Source: Hydrurus foetidus (lineage: Eukaryota). Taken from it: 35,108 nucleotides of DNA. The DNA lies in assembly GCA_900617105.1 (NCBI GenBank), contig UYFQ01000812.1:1-35108 (forward strand), read 5' to 3'. How positions within the stretch are numbered: position 1 is the stretch's first letter; the number at the start of each line of letters is the position of its first letter. This document shows, piece after piece, positions 3,238 through 29,400 of the stretch. The notes beneath the pieces are model-generated. The model ran no database searches and had not been told where the DNA came from. It worked only from the letters and a program-made list of their open reading frames with translations. Made by a program: the position numbers and the translations under genes.

Positions 3238-4604
3238 ATGCGGCATGAAGAGCAGCTTAAGTTGGGCACTACGACAACACTTGATGAGCCGGTCTCCGAA
3301 ACGATTGTAAGGCTGGCCATGGCTCAAACTTAATAATCACCTGCAGACTCCATAGCAATCCGCTCCAATTGTGATGCGGAACTTTTGAAATATCAATGAA
3401 ATGACTCCTACCGTTGCAATTCTCTACACTTAGATGCGCGACTTGCGCCAAGTAGCTGACAAACTGAAAGTTGTTTTGCTACCTCTTGGCCAAGCGAGCC
3501 AGGACAGTGTACTTTTGAAACTGCGAGAATGTAAGCATTTATCACATGACCATATTAGAACAGCTCAAACGAGGCAGACTTTAAAGATCCTAATGGAAGC
3601 ACTCGACATTTCTCTTTACTGTCCCTTCACAATCTATTTCATAATGCGTATTTATCTTTTCAAGTTCTAAGATTTCCGCTACCCTATTTCTTCTTCTTTC
3701 CCTCATTCTTCACTTTTTTCCTTTCATTTCATTTTAGGGGATCTGTGGGGTCCTTTACTAGTTTGTTTATTGCTTTCCTCAGTACTGAGCTTCACAGCAC
3801 CCGGTGACTCCGCTTCTCTCGTCTTTGCTGCTGTCTTTGTAATTGTGTGGTGCGGAGCAGCAGCCGTTACGGTCAATGCGCAGTTGTTGGGCGGAACCAT
3901 TTCATTCTTTCAAAGCATCTGCATATTGGGATATTGCGTTTTCCCCCTCACGATTTCAAGCATATCATGCTTAATCCTAAGTTTCATCTACAAACAGGTA
4001 ATTCAAACTCAATTTTGAAGCACACACTTTAAATCTGGGTTGGTGCATGGGGATAGGGTCCTATATAGGTTTTCCAGAATATCTCTTATATTGGACCCGA
4101 TATAGGTTTTCCTTAAAAAGCATTATACACAGAGGACAGGATTCCCCCAAAAAATTGTGCACCAACCCAGCCTAAAATTGATATCAAGACTTAAATTACT
4201 TGTCAGTGAAGATTCTTTGGATCTTTCGTATAATACATAATGTAATATTTTCACACTCATTTTGAATCTTATTATTTTTTATTTCAATATATCAGCTGGT
4301 GTTGAAGATCGTCATAGTGGGTGTAGGGTTCGTGTGGAGCACGAGAGGTACGTACGTGCACAACAACACACATTTATTTAATTGCCGCAATCTTCTTCTT
4401 TGCTCCTGCAGAAATTGTTTTACACAATTTCAACAAAAGAAAAAAACTTCAATCTTCAAAAAAAGTTACATTTTTTTCTTTTTCTTTTTTTCAGCGTCCG
4501 TGGTCTTCATGAATAATGTCGTCAAGGAAGAAAGAAGAATGCTCGCTGTATTTCCTGTGTTCTTTTTCTACACCTTCATTTCTTGGCTCATATTACTTCA
4601 GTAA
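3238..4604 (+). CDS. YIPF6: Yip1-domain Golgi membrane protein (YIPF6-like), at least 5 exons
   Basis: Exons 3238-3306, 3434-3530, 3738-3997, 4296-4347, 4495-4604, all GT-AG and phase-consistent. Motifs TTLDEPVSETIMRDL, WDLWGPLLVCL, NAQLLGGTISFFQSICILGYCVFP, RRMLAVFPVFFFY. An acceptor-like site at 3214 may mean an extra upstream exon. Confidence 0.9.
4035..4170. mobile_element. MITE-like element in YIPF6 intron 3
   Basis: Perfect 13 bp terminal inverted repeats ctgggttggtgca (4035-4047) / tgcaccaacccag (4158-4170); internal direct repeat tataggttttcc; non-coding; no clear TSD. Confidence 0.55.
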
Positions 4605-5110: not shown

Positions 5111-5788
5111 AATTCTTTTCTCCATTCGCAGTCAATTCCATTTCAGACAAACAAATGGCGACAACCAATTCAATTCGAGATCAGATTGAGACCCATTTCA
5201 AATATTGGAATTACTTATTCTCTCAAGCGAAGCTTGGATCGGCACTTTGCGAAAAGTTCGACCTAATCTGGGTTGTGTGGGCTGTTTTGCTTTGATGGGA
5301 TCTATCATACAGACTTGAAAGAATTATGACAGTGAAACAAGAATTGCAACATGTCTATCGGGCAAGACATTTGTCGATCTGTCCGACAGTATCTCGTCCT
5401 CTCTTCCTACCTCTCTTCCTTCTTTGCTTTATCTTTACTTCTCTACTTCACTTCCGCTCAATACATATTTATTGACCATCAGAACATCTGCTTCATCATC
5501 TAATTTCAGGGTTTCACATCTTTCGTCAACAATTGCCATCTTAATTATTTCTCTCTTAACAGTGGTGAACGAACACATTGAAACATAACATGGCATGGCA
5601 TGGCATGAAATGAAGTAACATTGAAATGAAATGAAGAATGTCAGAGCAACAGCAGAACAGGACGGTTCAGCAGTGTAACCACAACAAAACAGAATCAGCA
5701 ACAGGTCAGAGCAAAAGAGAACATAGAATTGTAATAAAGAAAAGAGAAAAGAAGGTCAGGAAGTATGTTACACGGAAATCTCGGAATT

Positions 5789-13371
<7,583 letters not shown>

Positions 13372-13741
13372 GATGCTACGAATTTGGTCGCTGATGCACG
13401 CAGATAGGCAAAGGATGCCAAAGCTGCTGTAATGAGCGAATTACTGGTCATAATGTAAGAAGTCTAAGTCGAAATGAATGGAAGGCTCAGTTACACCAGT
13501 TACAGTCTACAGTCACACACGTACATACTCTACGAAGTGTAAGTACTTGGGAAAGGGTGACGTTTCAAAGTTTACCGGATTTTTTTTCCCCCTCAACACT
13601 TCCGTAGCTTTTTCACTCTCGTCATGATTTCAACTCAATTGCGCTCGCTCTCTCAACTGTCTGACGTTTTGAAAGCTAAACTGTTACAGACATTATTTGA
13701 ACCTTGCAATCCAGTCTATTAATTCGCATACTATCATTGAA

Positions 13742-16700
13742 ATGGAACTAGCTCCTGAAGATAAAGTGAACATGTCCTTAGGTTCGTTGGGGAATATAAA
13801 CAACTCATCAAATTCGCGAAATCAACAACCTCGAATTTTTTGCCTCCTGCCCATTGAGATTTTGGCCTCGCACCAGTGACGCATAATTAAATCACTGCTC
13901 CTAGTGTCACAACTGAAATTTTCGCTCCCAAATTTCTCTGATCATGATACGCAGATGACCTCATCAAGGCGAAAAGGCTGAGCGCCGCCGCTGCCAAATT
14001 GGCAGCTCCTCCCGCTGCAGCAAAGAAACCAAGAGCTAAAAAGGTACTCTTCCAAGCAAGTGCAACTGATGAGTCATTTGGAGGGGCCCTATTATTCGCG
14101 TTCGGAAATAGAATCGCTGTTTATGGAAGAGTTTGACGATACATTTGATCCATGTCCATGATAATTGCCCTACTGTATGCTTCTTGATGACACTCTCACT
14201 GCAGGATTTCGGAATCTTCATCTGATAGACAGACCAGATCAGTTTCATCTGCCGCTCATTTTTATCACATGTGAGCTGAACTATTATTCCTTATATTACC
14301 ATTCAGCCAAACGCACAAGCGGCTGCTCCAAATGCCGGCAACCGCAACGCACCTCGACAAGCCACTGGAGCAGCAAATAAACCAAAGAGGAAGCCACGCA
14401 GAGGAGCAGGAGCAGGCGCCATGGATATCGTCCCTGCAGTCAGTCAGAAGGTCGCTCAGAATCTGGGCGAAGGAAAAGCGAAACGTGCAGCAGCAGTTGA
14501 CAAGGTGAATAATAGTATTTATTATGACTTGTTACAACCTTGCAAAAGAGTGCTACTCTATGAGTCCGCATCTTGGACTAGGGCATGATTTGAATAGCAT
14601 CCTCTCAGTCGATTAAGTGCACGTCATCTTGACCCCTCCCCTCTTCGAACTCTCAAGGAATTTGCTGCCTCATTATACCGCATCACAACCACTCTTCTCT
14701 TAAAATCTCCCATTTGTGACAATATCCATCCCCTGAGAGTCTTTAGCTTACAGCTACTCGTACTTTAACCCATATCAAGTACGCCTTGCTTTCTCTCTTC
14801 TCTCCATCCCCTACCACCCACTCCTCCAAATCTCAACCTCTCTCTCACCCTCGCTCTCATTTTCATAACCACTTCAATGCACTGTAGCGTCGTGGTCTGA
14901 ATGCCACAGGCAAGCCCACACGGCAACAGATGGATCTTGGAGGGGCACAGGAAGTGTCCGCAAACCGGGTAAGCATCTTCTCACTCTGGATGGGACCGGA
15001 CTGAAATCATACCGAATCTTACCAGGTTCAACCGGACCTATCAGACCGGGTAATGTGTGTTCTGGGAGGTACACGAACCTTCTGCGTTCTGCACACGTAC
15101 TAGATGCCGCGACTGACACGAATCGTGAGTACTTACAAAGAGGGAAATTGCTGAATGTGTTGAGTGCAGTGTTACAGCCAATGAGAGTTGAGTACGCACT
15201 GCACCGTAGCGGTTACAGGAATGGAGGGAAGGAGGAGGAGATGGAAGAGGAAGAAGAGGAGAAGGGGGTGAATGGAGGAGTATGATGTCGCCAATCCCCC
15301 GTTAGACTGATGGTCGCAGAAGCCAGTGTTGACGTTACATTCATTCCCTTCCGAGTTGTCATCATCCTTGCCACTGTGGACTGTCTCCTCTACTTCTCTC
15401 ACGAACGGATAGTGGGTCTAGGAATCACGATGGAATGTAACGCACGCACTTACTGACGTGCTGGCGTACGTACTGACTGAACGACTGACTGACGGGTGAC
15501 TCAACATCTATGAGTCAGTTGACCTCGGACCGGATATAGTGCGTCAGTGCTGTCTTCTCTTAGACTCTCCTCCTCTCCTCTCCCCCTTGTTTCCATCTCC
15601 TCTCTTCCCTCTGTATCAAGTCGCACAACACCTTCCCCTTGTCATACCAACTGCTCTTCACTTCTTACGGGATCGGTTCTTCACTTGGGGGGTCGCGTTC
15701 TATGCTATTGTGCAAAGCTTATACAGCTCTTACGGCATCATTGCACTGCGTTACGTCGTATCCAGCTCAGCTCAACACTCAGTCTCCTCTTTGAGGCCCT
15801 CTCGAGATTCTTTACTTCTCTTCTCTCCTCTTCTCTCCAGAGCCCACCATTTTCAATTTTGAAAATCTCCCTCTCTCTTTCTCTCTCTCGCGGGTATGCA
15901 ACTGACGTGTTCTGCCAATTCACGGGAGTTATACCGCGACATACGGCATAATTATACCGGCAACTGCAGCACCTTTGCGAAAGACTACTCAGTGAGATTC
16001 GATAATTGAGGTGGTCATTTGAGAACTTTCAAGTACTCGACTTAGCACTGTTCCTCACTCTCCAATAGTATCTCATGATATTTCTGCCTTATATTACTTC
16101 TCTGTCCATTGGCCTATCTACTGACGCACAATACGGCGAAGGGAGCTAGTGCAGAGATGAGATTTACATAATGTGCGAGAATAGAAGGAGATCGATGAGA
16201 CGATGACTGAAGGCCTGAGTCGAGGAATTCAGACTTGGAAAGGTAGAGGAGAGGAGAGAAAGGAAAGAGAGGAGAGGAAGGAAAGAGAGGAGAGAAAGAG
16301 AGTGGGTGTGAGTGCTCATCGGTCAGACGTGTTGACCGACTACTGGCTGTGCTGATTGACTCGCACTGTCGAGTTGTGGTTGATAGAACGATATGAATGT
16401 CGCGCATGCAATGCAGATCATTATGAGGCGCTGTAAGCAGCACACATGATGTATGCATTGAGGATGTACGATACAGTGAAGAAGAGAAATGAAGAGACGA
16501 GTGAAAGTGCATGGGTTGGAGACGAGGGAGACGATAATAACGTGCAGTCGAACGTACGTAAGCGCGTATATCAGAAGTACAGTACGGCGTACATGTAACA
16601 CCATACGGTCGATCAGAATGTATCCTGGAATCATGGATCCATAGTCCGATGGCTTTCCTTTTGTTGAGAGGCGAATCATCTTGCAATGTCTTTTGATCAT

Positions 16701-18150
16701 TGATGACATCTGTGCCTGTGTTACCGGAACAGAATGAAATGTCCAAATGAAATCGAATTTCAGGTGGAAATGATGATTTCAGCAGTGCATGAAGCATTCA
16801 AGATTTCAGCAGCGTTTCCAGTATGTATTTCGGACATTTTATTCTGTTCCAGTGATGCAACACTTGATGTGTAGGGCAGATTGTTTTTTCTACTCCTCCA
16901 TAGAACACAAGCATCAAATTGTGGATGTAGCATCAAATTGTGGATGTAGCATCAAATTGTGGATGTAGCATCAAATTGTCTTGACGTCATCTATTTCGCA
17001 GTATTACAAGTTTACATCATCTCATCTCTCTCTTCCGTTTCTTCTTCCTCCATTTCTGTCACTGTTCTCTCCCTGCCTTTCCTCTCCTTCCTCTTTCCCC
17101 TTTCCTTCCCTTCTCTCTTCTCCTCTCCACTCTCCTGTCGTTCTCTACGCATTCCTACTACTCCTTCTTTTATTCCTACTTCATTTAGAGGCGTCAAGAT
17201 AGAAAGAAAGCCGCCCTTAGAGACAGCAAAGCTAACGGGGCTCGGCCAGTATCTGCCCGGCAACCGGTTAAAAACGGCCTAAAGATTTCTTTCAAGCCAG
17301 CTGATCTGAACAAGACAACTGACAAATCCGTGGCGCTGCAGGTAAGCATTTATTTCCACTATTTCTTATTTTCTCCTCCTTTTCGCTTGATGCATTATTT
17401 CCCTTTTCTTCCTGCAGTAATTCCCTCCCTTCCTCTTTTCTCTCCCTCTCCCCACATCCATCTACCATTAGCTCCCTTTCCCCTTTCTCTCTTTTTTCCT
17501 GTCTTTGTCCCACTCTCTCCATCTCTCTTCTTCATCGTCACACCCTCCTTCCTTTCACCCTCATACCTTACTCACGACCACCTTCCTCTCACTCTCTCGC
17601 GCATCAGATCCGTGCAGTGCTGTCGAAGCAGAGAGGTGATGGAGGTCCAGGCGCAAAGAAGGGAAACAACAATGGTGGAATTATCGGAAACTCGGTACGT
17701 ACAGGACATTCAATTCGTGCTTTACTTTTTCAAAGTCCATATGCATAAGGACATGTATCAGTGTTCATACTTATATTTGAAACTATATTGTGATACTCTC
17801 TCTTTGGTTCTGCTTTACTACTTGAGACCTATCTGACATGTCATAAAGTGTGTCATTACGATTGCTACGATGACGCGTGGGATCATTTTCTATTGCCCAT
17901 TAAATCGCCATATTCGAATGTTGCCAAGACAGCGAAGACTCACTTTACATACTCACTTATCTACTCCTTGTCTACTCTCTGCAAACGAATCGATTTTACA
18001 AGTTTTACGATGACTTTCTTCTATTTCTCAACGGTGTCAATTTTATGTGCGATTTTTATGGAGCAGAGTAGATCTGTATCGAGTGTTGGTGCAGGTGGGA
18101 ACAACAACAACGGAGGAGGGGCGAGAAACAGAGGAGGAAGAAGAAATTAA
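13742..18150 (+). CDS. Basic nuclear RNA-binding protein with N-terminal UAP56-binding motif (ALYREF/UIF/CHTOP-like mRNA export adaptor), 7 exons, ~243 aa
   Basis: Exons 13742-13781, 13955-14043, 14307-14504, 14888-14968, 17189-17341, 17608-17694, 18067-18150 total 732 nt, GT-AG and in frame. Starts MELAPEDKVNMSLDDLIKAKR (matches the DKxxMSLDDIIK motif of ALYREF/Yra1/FYTTD1); K/R/A/G-rich body; ends GGGARNRGGRRN; no RRM seen. Confidence 0.75.
15046..16870 (+). ncRNA. Predicted large structured intronic RNA (four hairpin domains) in intron 4 of the UAP56-binding-motif gene
   Basis: Nested co-linear helices found by eye across 15046-15960, 16027-16240, 16319-16616 and 16706-16870. Non-Watson-Crick positions are mostly G:U on the + strand. 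No match to a ncRNA family I can recognise. Confidence 0.55.
16910..16979. repeat. 19 bp tandem repeat (~3.7 copies)
   Basis: Unit agcatcaaattgtggatgt, just downstream of the structured intron region. Confidence 0.9.
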
Positions 18151-22100: not shown

Positions 22101-22355
22101 CACTAAATTTCATTGCATAATTTACATGATATACATGTTGTAGGTATGGCGGCAGCAGTCACTCTTTCCAGCGCATTCGGTATGATATTCTACTCAGTCG
22201 CATTTCTCGTCAACGATGCAAAACGACTGGAAGCAAAAGTGGACAGAAAAGCGCTCGTACGTACCCAATATTTGAAGTACAGAGAAAATCACACCCACTC
22301 CCTTGCATCGGCTTCGGAGGATGTGTCGGGACAGGACTATGGGGGTCATTTCTGA
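19181..22355 (+). CDS. UNC-93-like major facilitator superfamily membrane protein, 6 exons, ~498 aa
   Basis: Exons 19181-19478, 19678-20358, 21018-21122, 21375-21433, 21702-21843, 22144-22355 total 1497 nt in frame. Many hydrophobic helices; motifs FSINHGCAVTCLAYA, LGPK, GGFSGGLLWTSQGAF, RGIWENTNKAVIADFF. Confidence 0.85.
20459..20684. repeat. 13 bp minisatellite (~17 copies) in UNC-93-like intron 2
   Basis: Unit aataagtgaatgc with few variants; explains the repetitive minus-strand ORFs at 20282-20743. Confidence 0.95.
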
Positions 22356-22428
22356 CCCCAGGGTTTGGGGGTCATTTCTGACTACAGGGTTTGGGGGTCA
22401 TTTCTGACTACAGAGTTCTAGGGGTCAT
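22341..22428. repeat. 26 bp tandem repeat (3+ copies) overlapping the UNC-93-like stop codon
   Basis: Unit gggggtcatttctgac(c/t)(c/a)cagggttt at 22341, 22367, 22393, partial at 22421. Confidence 0.9.
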
Positions 22429-24014
22429 AATTTCTAAATTCACCTCATTGCACTTTTCTATTTTCTACAATCTGACTATTTCTGATTTCAATTTCGAGAT
22501 ATTTGTGATAATCATCAAGAAGCATAAGAAGTTTGTATTCTGACTTTTATGACTAAAAGTAGTCCAGAAGAGTTTTATTCTGTTAATGATTATGTAGAAA
22601 CATTTTGAGTTTTCTTGCTTCACTAAACTGTCTGTTTTCATTCACTGAATTATTAAATAAACAGATGAATGAAAATATAAAAGTGTATCGACTTTGTTTT
22701 TGTTCCATTTTAGTACTGCAGTATCAGCATTTGAATATCAATTTTTGACAGACAGGCGCGGACGCTTTCCTTGCCCTTCTTTATTTCTGTCTCCACATAT
22801 GTCAGAAAATGAAAATTGTTGAACCAAATGCAATAACTTTGTCTGTGTAATCATCGAGATAATTGAGCGAGGCATCCACCATACAAGTTGCGTTGCAATC
22901 TAAAGCTTAAATCTTCGAATTTCTTCAATTGCTCCAATATGTTTGGTAGCCTGTAGCTTTCCGGGTTCAAAGAGTGCTCTACATGGCGACACGATTTTTG
23001 ACAGGGCTAGAACGCGGCACGACATCACAGGAAATGATATGACGTCATATGATTGTGGCATCTTATAAATCCCCTTGCAATTGTACTGAAGTTTGGATAA
23101 CGCTTGTATCGATAAGAATCTCAAATGACACATATTCTCGATCGTTCCAATGAGAATATCACATATTCTTCTCATGGCGCAGTCTTCTGGCGCTTAAGAC
23201 TGCGCCACCATGATTGCGCCATATGAACTTCGTGACTAAGCAAAAGCTGTCTTTCGAAGTTCACAGAAACTTATCTGTGGTGATGTTAAGACTTTCAAAT
23301 GGCAACAGAGACAACGGACAAAGTCTCTGTTGAGTGGCCATTTTATCGATACAAGTGTGATTCATTCATGTAAGGAATCAAATGAGAGTTTCTGCGACCG
23401 GTAGAGACTTCCTTGATGCTCGTCTATTGTTTATGTTGTCGTGTTCCATTTTTGAAAGTATCATGTCATCTGCTGTTTCTCGCGATCGATTCTTGACGGA
23501 CAATTCAGCGGCCTCTAAGGCTACGTAGAAAACGTTCTCATTTGTCTCAGATCTCGACTACAGCAGACTGGTAGGAAGAAAGTTGCAGAGGAAAAGATGT
23601 ACTGAATGAAGACGAAAAATCGGCGTGGCAACTTCTGGTCGAATATCAAAAATTGGACAAAAGGGTGTTGGAGGTCGGAGGGTTGGGGGTTGGGGGGGGG
23701 GGGTTGTTTTTTGTTTTTGCATTTTCAAAAAATCCACACACGCACTTGAGAAGAGCGGACAGCTACCCCCACTGATGTCACACTCATTTTTTAAAAATTA
23801 AACCGGATAGATGAAACAGATATTGATGGGATTGAAGATCTGACATAAACCTCAATATATCTGCCGGTAACTTTCTCCAGTTGTCTCCTTGTAAATTGCA
23901 CAGTTGTCTACAGCGTTGGAGAAGTTGCTGTGAGTTTAAAGAGGACACCGTCATTCCTGCGAGGGCCGACCAAGACTGCAATCTTTGCGTTATTCAATCG
24001 AGAAAATTGTCCAT

Positions 24015-26358: not shown

Positions 26359-26412
<54 letters not shown>

Positions 26413-29400
26413 ATGAATGTGACAAGGAGGGAGAGATTGAATGGGAATGAAGAGCGTGGGGCAATGAGTGAGTGGATTAGTTAGGGTGGGTGATCGAGGA
26501 CAGGATGCATTGAATGACAGATATGGCTGTGACAAGAGAGAGAGTGAAAGTAAAGATATTCGTAAAACATCAATAATAACGGGGAAATGAGCCTCAAATC
26601 TGAAATGTTCACAGTACACTAAACTTTTTGGAATTTTAATGTCAAGTTAAAGAAAGCTAATATCTCAAATATTGAAAAAAGCTACAATATCAACATAATG
26701 ATTCTGATGATAATGATATTATTTGATGCAGGTTCCGGTTTATTTGGGTGAGATTGCTCCACCGACACTGAGGGGTACTCTGGGTACACTCACACAGTTC
26801 TCCATGGTCATAGGTGAGTACTAAATACTAAATATTAGTAGACATGCACTATTATATTTTTTACTCGTACTTTTTCATATGGACGTACCTTTTCCTCCCC
26901 AGTTCATCTTCCTTCATCTCCTCTTCTTCTTTCCATCCCTGCTCTTTATTCAACGTACATCTTATCTCCTCTTCTATTTCTCCCTCCCTCCTTCCCATCC
27001 TTCTTTTAATCTCTCTTCCTTTTCCTCACTCTCCCTCCCCCTCTCCATCTTTCCTCCTGGATTCGCGGATCGTAACTCCGGCTCTTTGTTTACTACAATT
27101 GGCCGTAAGCCCCTTCTTATTGGAATCGCCCAGGTACATGTGCAGCAAAGAATGCACGCAGTAATAGCACAAATTGTCCCTTTTTCCTCTCTAATTCTCC
27201 CTTTCCTTCCCCTTACCTCTTTAAATCCCTCTATCCTCTATCTTTCGATACCTCCCCATACTCGCCACTCTCTCTTTTCTTCTCTTCTCTTTTTACTTCT
27301 CATCTCTCTCCTTCTCCATTCTTTTTCCCTCTATTCTCTTATCTTTTCCTCTTTGCTTTATTTCACACAGGTGGTTGCTTGGACTGAACGAGAACAGTGC
27401 AGAAGCCAGAGTCGTAATTAAACAAATGAGAGGATTCCGACTAGACGCAGATGTTGAACATGAGGTATGTGCGTATGTACCTACGTACGTACACGTGAAC
27501 GTACCTACCTACTCCCGATCTGTCGCGTGTCATGATTATTGTTTTCATGTGCACTGTGTGTAAAAATGTGAATTTGTAGTGGATGAGGTATGGTAATGAT
27601 GCTGCATTGTGCCTGTCGATATGTCTATCCTAGTAGTGGTCAATTTCGAATCAACCCATCTTGTAAAACGATACATACAGCTCTCAACTGTACAATGTAC
27701 CGCACATACCATATACCTGTACTTACTCTTACATCACGTACGTTACTGTGCAGGTGCAACATTTTCTGTTTGCGGCTTCGAAGCACAAGACGCACAGAGA
27801 CAGCGCACACAGCGGAGGAGCCATGTACGACCTGCTCAAATCCAAGTACGTACGTACGTACGGTGCAAGCTACGTACGATTAGTGCTACACGACACTATG
27901 ACCCGAACCCTCCTAATCAATCTCCCTCTTCCCCCTCCCTCCCCCTATCCCTTTACCCTCTATTCCATCCCCCTAACCCTATTCCATCCCACTCCCCCGT
28001 TTTCCAGGATATGCGTGTGCTAGTCGTCTTTTCAAAGACCTTAAGCGATTGACATTCTTGACTGGTTCGCATTCTCCATTCTTTTCCTTTTTCCTCCTTT
28101 TCCTTCCATCCTTTCTGATTCTTCGCCGCCGCGCCTTCCCCTTTTTTGACTCCCTCCACTTTCCCTCCACCCTCCTTTCCCTTTCCTCTTTCCTCTTCCT
28201 TCCTCCCTTTCGCCTCACCAACACCCTCCCTCCCTCTCCTCCTTCTAACCCCACAGACCCCTTAGTCGGAACAACTTTGGTAGCTTTTATGAATGTAATA
28301 GCGACATACATTGCTTTGAAATTAATGGACAACACGGCTAGGAGGACTCTTATACTAATTTCCGCGGGTGGAATGATAATTTCAACGATAGTGATCGTAG
28401 CAGCTATGACTGGTAAGGGTATTTCACTAATATATACTTTTTTAGTTTTTTTTTTTAGTACTTTATTCTGACTCATTATTTCTGACCGATTATTTTTTTC
28501 GATTTCAATTCATTTTATTTCAATTTTCCTAACCTCACTATTTCTTATTTTAGTTTTCTCACCTTACCTTACCTCACCTCACTTCACCTCACCTCACCTT
28601 TTCTCATTTTATCTTAATTGATGTGCACTTACCCTCCAGGATTGATATACAGTTCAGTCTCGCTGGTGGCTGTTATGTCGTTCGTCCTTTTTTACGGTAA
28701 AATTAAAACTGTCAATGCATGAGATTTGCGCTTGTGTTTTTACCCCTCTATCCTATTTACGTAGACAATGTGGGTGAGACCGTAAATTCAGAAAACCCAG
28801 AAGCCCAAATTTAGGATCTAGGACTTCTGGGTTTCTGGGATTTAGACAAGGAATCTGGAGACCCCCCCCCCCGCCCTTTCTAGATTTACAGGATCCCAGA
28901 TTTTTTGAAAATTTCACCCAAAATCTGGGGGTCTGGGTTTTTTAAATTTACGGTCGCACCCAGTGCACACATGCACAAACACACGCGCACACACTGAACT
29001 TTACTCACACACACCAAAACTCCTCTACTCCTACAGTTCACTGAAGACACACATTCACTCACACTTCCCCTTTCCCCCACCGCCCTACACACACACTCAC
29101 CATCACGTACGTATTTCAGAAATTGGTCTCGGTCCCATTCCTTGGTTGATTGTCGCTGAAATGTTCGATGCCAAATACGTTGCAACGGCAATGAGCATGG
29201 CCTGCATCGTCAACTGGTAAACCATTGCCATTAATTTGATGCTGATTAGTTTTATTTGATGATATTTTTTGTACTCTTGTACGTGTCATAACACTTTTGT
29301 TTTCACTGTGCTTTTTCAAGGTTGGAAAAAAAGTTTGATCGAAAAGTCGAAATTACGAACAACAAAATGTTTGTATAGTACACACTTTGTTTGTCAAGAT

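Follow-up and report, generated by a model that had tools for sequence, protein, structure and literature searches.

The window analysed here is contig UYFQ01000812.1 of Hydrurus foetidus (35,108 nt), and the element of interest is the fourth intron of a gene on its + strand, between positions 13742 and 18150. This host gene comprises seven coding exons whose open frame encodes a 243-aa product, and each of its six GT-AG joints is spanned by 88-209 reads in the stranded poly(A) RNA runs X17 and X18. The two runs derive from one sample carrying the same species label, and ~6% of each was sampled; read and contig evidence as a whole was drawn from 8 of the 18 listed runs. The introns measure 173, 263, 383, 2220, 266 and 372 nt. 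A preliminary description of the window had placed a rod-like RNA of about 17 nested helices in intron 4, and the spliced joints bear out this location. It had also called the intron the longest in the window, which holds for the comparison with the other introns of the host gene (2220 versus 173-383 nt).

The host gene and its retained intron

Intron 4 is the only intron of the host gene that is retained in the poly(A) reads, an outcome that the preliminary description had anticipated. Sense-strand bin depth ranges from 0 to 18 within intron 4, part of which reflects cross-mapping at GA tracts, while the bins inside introns 3, 5 and 6 have a depth of 0 in both runs. At position 14996 the depth is 8 and 10, compared with 174 and 142 spliced-joint reads (X17 and X18, respectively), which corresponds to retention of ~5% by depth and splicing of ~95% of transcripts. 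Antisense reads are almost absent from intron 4 in these runs, save for repeat cross-mapping at 16245-16278. No sharp read ends are seen in intron 4 among the poly(A) reads, and the intron reads are continuous with the exons.

Assembled contigs include the same retained form. In X3, contigs with exon 3 joined to exon 4 run on into intron 4, and intron 4-exon 5 sequence is joined to exon 6; because X3 may stem from the source study, it does not count as separate evidence. A metatranscriptome contig from X9 has exons 3 and 4 spliced together and extends as far as 15036. The spliced joint is also present in X10, together with contigs over most of intron 4 that may be of DNA origin. Translation of the retained form would end at an in-frame stop near the 5′ end of the intron (Table 1), giving a product of 147 aa that is without the conserved C-terminal domain. 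The rare use of an internal 5′ splice site in X17 has no counterpart among the joints listed for X18. This donor ends a candidate 77-nt cassette or poison exon (16477-16553) that begins with an in-frame stop; depth is raised in the bin 16452-16615, and an upstream joint for the candidate is absent among the joints listed. A 24-nt mini-exon at 15026-15049 was rejected, as the reads contain no joint for it and, in relatives, the donor carries changes or an interruption.

Table 1. Coordinates of the host gene and of features in intron 4 (positions in the window).
Feature	Position	Strand	Basis or detail
Coding exons of host gene	13742-13781, 13955-14043, 14307-14504, 14888-14968, 17189-17341, 17608-17694, 18067-18150	+	Spliced reads
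Intron 4	14969-17188 (2220 nt, GT-AG)	+	Selectively kept in poly(A) RNA
In-frame stop in retained intron 4	15002-15004 (34 nt in)	+	Open-frame reading
Core stem, 5′ arm (unique sequence)	15120-15211	+	Duplex energy versus null
Core stem, 3′ arm (20-nt bulge at 15750-15769)	15703-15810	+	Duplex energy, pair probabilities
Sense-strand-only hairpin (40 bp, 10 G:U, several bulges)	15455-15555	+	Folding versus shuffles
GA-rich tract	15212-15271	+	Pairs with 15566-15624, p ~0.9
CT-rich partner tract	15566-15624	+	Pairs with 15212-15271
Apical arm with 10-bp helix 15325-42/15433-50	15317-15455	+	p 0.84
Second GA tract	16242-16315	+	Can pair with pyrimidine tract 17064-17128 upstream of 3′ splice site
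Rare internal 5′ splice site	16554-16559 (16553 joined to 17189, exon 5)	+	8 reads, 4 starts, X17
Inverted-repeat element, probably decayed MITE (miniature inverted-repeat transposable element)	16717-16859		Symmetric z -5.9/-5.3

The host protein is basic and carries an N-terminal motif resembling a UAP56-binding motif (UBM), along with a conserved C-terminal LKISFKP domain. A search of cluster representatives with the relative P0003 returned 19 homologues at E <=0.001, and a profile built from 12 fuller homologues returned 20 proteins at E <=0.01. The named members of this family come from records of Ochromonas, Hydrurales sp. and Paraphysomonas, which points to a chrysophyte origin of the window. 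Three segments are found family-wide: an N-terminal MSL motif that is invariant in 12 of 12 aligned members, a central KR..RG motif and a C-terminal LxISFxP..L..TT..QI domain. When the family profile was compared with PDB, the top two matches were REF2 N-termini (E 0.022 and 0.035), and THOC4 (E 0.72 and 1.1) was among the 8 matches at E <=10. The PDB match spans the N-terminal motif alone, and the corresponding stretch of REF2 is the UBM of ALYREF, UIF, LUZP4 and CHTOP (PMC5095910).

Searches for additional homology gave no support for membership in a named family. Neither a Pfam family nor an RNA recognition motif (RRM) was found in five window exons, and the 12 homologues gave no Pfam family at E <0.018 and no RRM. 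PDB searched by phmmer with P0008 alone gave no match, and a search of the ESM Atlas gave no usable one. The defining ALYREF/Yra1 architecture is a central RRM between N- and C-terminal UBMs, and the host falls outside ALYREF because it has no RRM. UIF/FYTTD1 and LUZP4 offer a closer likeness, as they carry a UBM with little other homology to ALYREF (PMC5095910), whereas the host resembles them by motif only, and homology to UIF/FYTTD1 beyond the UBM was not found among the 12 members. These features characterize the host as probably an mRNA-export adaptor, UIF-type in looks and a putative UAP56 binder. The earlier label of export-adaptor-like is supported by the MSL motif and the REF2 matches, and finds no backing from an RRM or a Pfam family. 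The family is an uncharacterised and unannotated, probably UBM-bearing protein family in stramenopiles. A literature search found no report of the locus, the gene family or the intron, most subscription papers being beyond its reach. One family member, P0013, bears the NCBI label 'archaeon' and is probably from a eukaryotic contig in a mis-binned assembly.

Folding of the 5′ half of intron 4

In the comparison with shuffled sequences that the preliminary description had proposed, the region 15040-15965 folds beyond the controls on the + strand, with z from -4.2 to -4.4 versus -1.4 to -2.3 on the - strand. Specifically, the minimum free energy (MFE) of the + strand is -310.3, with z -4.41 and none of 20 global shuffles as low. 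Block shuffles of 30 and 60 nt, which preserve local purine/pyrimidine skew, yield z -4.44 and -4.18 (0/30 each). The - strand gives z -1.43 with global shuffles, and -1.57 and -2.26 with block shuffles. Local 300-nt folds reveal no signal within the region, and the signal is therefore mostly long-range. The region is single-copy in run X5 save for the GA tract (flat depth 88.5).

Although the arms of the 16 main helices previously named are present and able to pair, the nested 17-helix rod does not emerge from the ensemble, where only 9 of the 17 helices have a probability above 0.5 at 37 C. The likely helices are the terminal 4-bp CCGG, helix 15325-42/15433-50 and the seven lying between 15120 and 15246. 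Probabilities are at most 0.09 for five outer helices, 0.24 for helix 15371-77/15409-15, and 0 for both 15299-305/15489-95 and the tgactca side arm. A fold constrained to keep a pair from every one of the 17 helices has -289.5, which is 21 kcal/mol above the MFE. The outer-arm duplex has z -0.1, and aligning the two arms along the entire rod, gaps allowed, does no better than shuffles (z 0.1). When segments are shuffled in place, the MFE loses 10.6 kcal/mol with the core stem, 6.5 with the hairpin at 15455-15555 and 14.7 with these two together, compared with 2.7 with the GA/CT tract and 1.6 with the outer arms. Folding models thus partly confirm the described structure, in a smaller form: a ~690-nt domain with two elements, the core stem and the sense-only hairpin. 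Two further claims for the rod also required revision. The G:U excess is not significant rod-wide by strand-neutral counts (35 G:T versus 23 A:C, p 0.15; 6 versus 7), and is strong for the hairpin only. Likewise, the claim that intron 4 is much less low-complexity than its neighbours is not confirmed, as its 3-mer entropy (4.80) is below that of introns 1, 2, 3 and 6 (4.94-5.07) and above that of intron 5 alone (4.19).

The core stem contains 69 bp, including 10 G:U, between arms that lie 490 nt apart. Its duplex energy of -81.3 compares with -49.0 for the null, giving z -6.8 on the + strand (0/300) and z -3.5 on the - strand, and it is the top tile pair in the 7 regions scanned (of 8 planned). 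Multiple copies of the kind expected for a MITE were not found, X5 depth being flat outside the GA tract, and no target duplication is apparent by eye at 15120/15810.

The hairpin was missed in the preliminary description, which had paired the same bases differently. On the + strand it folds at -45.6 (z -6.1, 0/200), compared with -22.5 (z 0.3) on the - strand. In a scan of 1401 windows, of which 170 were scored, it has the largest strand asymmetry of the 17 rows at z <=-3.5. In a simulation of 3121 decaying palindromes with comparable stability, 7 reached this asymmetry in the sense direction and 22 did so in either direction, for a hairpin that was picked post hoc. The strand asymmetry formerly ascribed to the entire rod is located here. 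The 5′ half of intron 4 (14969-16150) also contains the word ACUGAC seven times (Bonferroni 0.067), and most of this cluster sits on the 5′ arm of the hairpin. From their likeness to the consensus, these words are putatively branch-point-like.

The Rfam scan proposed for the region was run three ways, and no match reached gathering score: the Rfam 15 search of the window gave 0 such matches, and two further Rfam searches gave sub-threshold ones only. ARAGORN found no tRNA. A short folded distance between the splice sites (112 steps) was computed without a control and is not used as evidence.

Repeat tracts and neighbouring elements

Other pairings in intron 4 involve simple repeats. The duplex between the GA-rich tract and its CT-rich partner has z -2.2/-2.4 on the two strands, and this pairing is mostly compositional. 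Pairing of the second GA tract is compositional as well, because its z is -2.0/-2.6 on both strands. GA- and CT-rich tracts at 9738-10432 and 26410-27054 can pair across other introns too, and such pairing is therefore common in the genome. The apical arm on its own is no better than shuffles (z 0.4).

The 3′ half of the intron contains an inverted-repeat element (16717-16859) that is outside the RNA-level signal. Its arms match each other, and one X4 contig joins them without the middle. Many unrelated contigs in four environmental runs carry sequence that matches the right arm, and in all four of these runs the segment 16814-16847 is raised in depth and its flanks are unrelated. A perfect 19-nt tandem array of 3.7 copies lies at 16910-16979 and is shorter in the X10 relative. 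A 'second rod' at 16230-17155 (z -4.3/-3.7) was rejected as element- and repeat-driven; shuffling the element and the array abolishes the + strand excess of the 3′ half.

Elsewhere in the window, a 63-nt inverted repeat at 7149-7287, with 90% complementarity around a spacer of 13 nt and a strong fold on either strand, is probably a DNA palindrome or MITE, and further inverted repeats occur at 28771-28962 (45-nt arms) and 4025-4180 (23-nt arms). Long GC-rich open reading frames (257 and 511 aa) at 13-2237 on the - strand are unlike the rest of the window and are possibly a transposable element. A multi-exon gene that appears DEAD-box helicase-like, from motifs judged by eye, lies at ~5435-13440 on the - strand, head-to-head with the host gene, and the two starts are ~370 nt apart.

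Possible functions of the retained intron

Any account of intron 4 must accommodate what was observed directly, namely the gene structure, the selective retention of one intron while its neighbours are spliced, the stop at 15002 and sense-only folding beyond chance. With somewhat less than even confidence, we favour the possibility that the structured, retained intron 4 acts as a cis-element for feedback control of the host gene. In such a model the stem and hairpin likely slow intron 4 splicing and thereby damp expression of their own gene. The core stem and hairpin would form in vivo, and they, or the ACUGAC words hidden there, would serve as binding sites for the host protein or for some splicing factor. 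The structure would slow splicing and so produce the small retained share with its early stop, and this share would rise with the level of host protein. The retained RNA might then be detained in the nucleus or eliminated through nonsense-mediated decay (NMD), as for CHTOP intron 2.

Human CHTOP intron 2 is the most instructive precedent, as binding, feedback and NMD have been demonstrated for it and its stem-loop region is conserved across vertebrates (PMC5175361). Both introns are the one retained intron of their gene, a UBM-type export-factor gene in the case of CHTOP and a probable one here, with a stop near the 5′ end and predicted stem-loops in the 5′ part. In contrast, the host described here belongs to an unrelated chrysophyte family, and its structure is larger (a ~690-nt domain) and known from a predicted fold. 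By analogy, intron 4 would likely work as CHTOP intron 2 does. The YRA1 intron of yeast likewise resides in an export-adaptor pre-mRNA and contains several cis modules (PMC2864733), but Yra1 is orthologous to ALYREF and contains an RRM (PMC5095910), which the host does not have. Intron 10 of NXF1 is a long retained intron (1.8-4 kb) of an export-factor gene with a structured element, the 94-nt constitutive transport element (CTE), which shows conservation between fish and humans and stimulates export as a binding site for Nxf1 (PMC4338338). The host is not NXF1, and no such conserved element was found, although the CTE sequence was not compared directly.

Part of the evidence that weighs against a regulatory role comes from comparison with relatives. 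Environmental relatives differ by ~5-8% in intron 4 versus ~0-3% in exons, with no marked sequence conservation. Among the 48 differences listed, 23 are unpaired, 10 keep a pair, 15 break one (15.7 expected) and none is compensatory, where 129 and 151 further rows are unlisted and may hold partners; the structural conservation looked for is not seen in this set. Reads through the intron in related proteins, from which alone orthologous intron lengths are inferred, suggest ~195 nt in P0004 and ~54 nt in P0045, and no intron in P0012, P0016 and P0017. Several other points also count against feedback control. The strand asymmetry of the core stem alone is not significant (P 0.07-0.12 against simulated decayed palindromes), and neither the core stem nor the hairpin overlaps a splice site. 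Two of 19 control windows of 926 nt, each compared with 9 shuffles, have z <=-3.8 (3600-4525 and 22400-23325). The UBM match is weak (E 0.022), and a 2.2-kb intron among introns of 173-383 nt could splice slowly from length alone. No control window has an MFE below -282.4. Window 22400-23325 has z -6.1 on the + strand and -1.7 on the - strand, and contains a symmetric palindrome at ~23130-23300 and direct repeats at ~22340-22425.

For run X5, 37 of 51 differences are listed, a list that we infer to be complete up to 15668. Pair breaks number 8 versus 10.9 expected, or 7 versus 7.1 in another setting. Once 10 rows in the GA/CT tract are dropped, because indels shift the register there, 3 of 27 differences break pairs versus 6.4 expected (P 0.048), or 2 versus 4.1 in the other setting (P 0.16). 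The P of 0.048 is one of four settings, the remaining three giving 0.14-0.58, which again tells against constraint. All 37 listed X5 differences lie outside the 92-nt 5′ arm of the core stem (P 0.005 for that arm; 0.08 when treated as a largest-gap test). The 3′ arm has two changes in X9 that disrupt pairing, provided that the unlisted rows hold no matching change on the partner side. Selection on the structure of intron 4 is hinted at by these substitution patterns. Orthologous intron DNA was sought in a metagenome scan with exon 5, which gave only 2 bacterial-looking chance loci, in a viral scan, which gave none, and in a prokaryote scan, which gave 1 chance locus. The ENA proteins P0003-P0006 cover the 3′ end of intron 4 and exons 5-7 as one unbroken reading. 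If these records are transcript-derived, then a relative with a short intron 4 retains it too.

The foremost alternative is that intron 4 grew by repeat expansion and element insertion and is spliced late from length, its folds being by-products without a regulatory role. The GA/CT tracts, the 19-nt array and the probable MITE inside the intron are what such growth would leave, and the loss of the 3′ half excess upon shuffling of the element and array points the same way. The apparently short or absent orthologous introns, the lack of covariation among listed differences and the control windows of similar z are also in keeping with it. The core stem is less easily explained in this manner, being unique, single-copy in X5 and formed (z -6.8) by arms 490 nt apart, the 5′ one without listed X5 differences, and the hairpin folds on the transcribed strand only. 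We consider this alternative rather unlikely.

Two other explanations assign the structures a different task, and both seem improbable. The pairings could be an aid to splicing that loops out an over-long intron, the retained fraction being the residue of imperfect splicing. A zipper stem reportedly enhances splicing of RPL7B, ~95% of the transcripts are spliced, and the last 100 nt of intron 4 are without a CTRAY/CTCAY-type word, as are those of intron 6. Complementary (AC)m-(GT)n repeats bridge zebrafish introns by pairing across them (PMC4691745), whereas the repeats of intron 4 are GA/CT, internal and carry little of the signal. The best-supported helices lie within the 5′ half and leave the intron ends unjoined, and the end-proximal helices of the preliminary description have near-zero probability.

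A separate RNA hosted by the intron, for instance a stable intronic species or, from 15455-15555, the precursor of a microRNA, has a similarly slim chance. The 40-bp hairpin is on the host strand, and brown-algal microRNAs are mostly intronic and on the host strand, while the same source reports three diatoms as without strong candidates (PMC4513859). The hairpin has 10 G:U pairs and several bulges, and the intron reads run continuously into exons. The intron-hosted RNA that the preliminary description had offered as an option thus receives no support from an Rfam match, a tRNA or discrete read ends, in poly(A) libraries or contigs where small and non-poly(A) RNAs are invisible. An origin of the core stem as a degenerate terminal inverted repeat left by an ancient DNA transposon is very improbable, for despite its long-range inverted arms, an asymmetry compatible with a DNA palindrome and MITE-like palindromes elsewhere in the genome, the stem is single-copy at flat X5 depth with no target duplication by eye, and the sense-only hairpin is left unexplained.

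Feedback control by intron 4 can also be cast in a more specific form that, taken as a whole, is distinctly unlikely. A short ancestral intron in a UAP56-adaptor family would have become a 2.2-kb detained intron, yielding a recent and independent chrysophyte feedback intron in which the G:U-rich hairpin hides ACUGAC decoys and opens on binding of the host protein. In yeast and vertebrates, export adaptors use introns of their own genes to set their dose. To meet the same layout in a chrysophyte, where the adaptor family is unrelated and relatives apparently have the intron short or not at all, would show this circuit arising again by convergence. If convergent, intron 4 would be a young example of how such elements form, and the more specific reading, if true, would represent stramenopile export-factor autoregulation caught at its origin.

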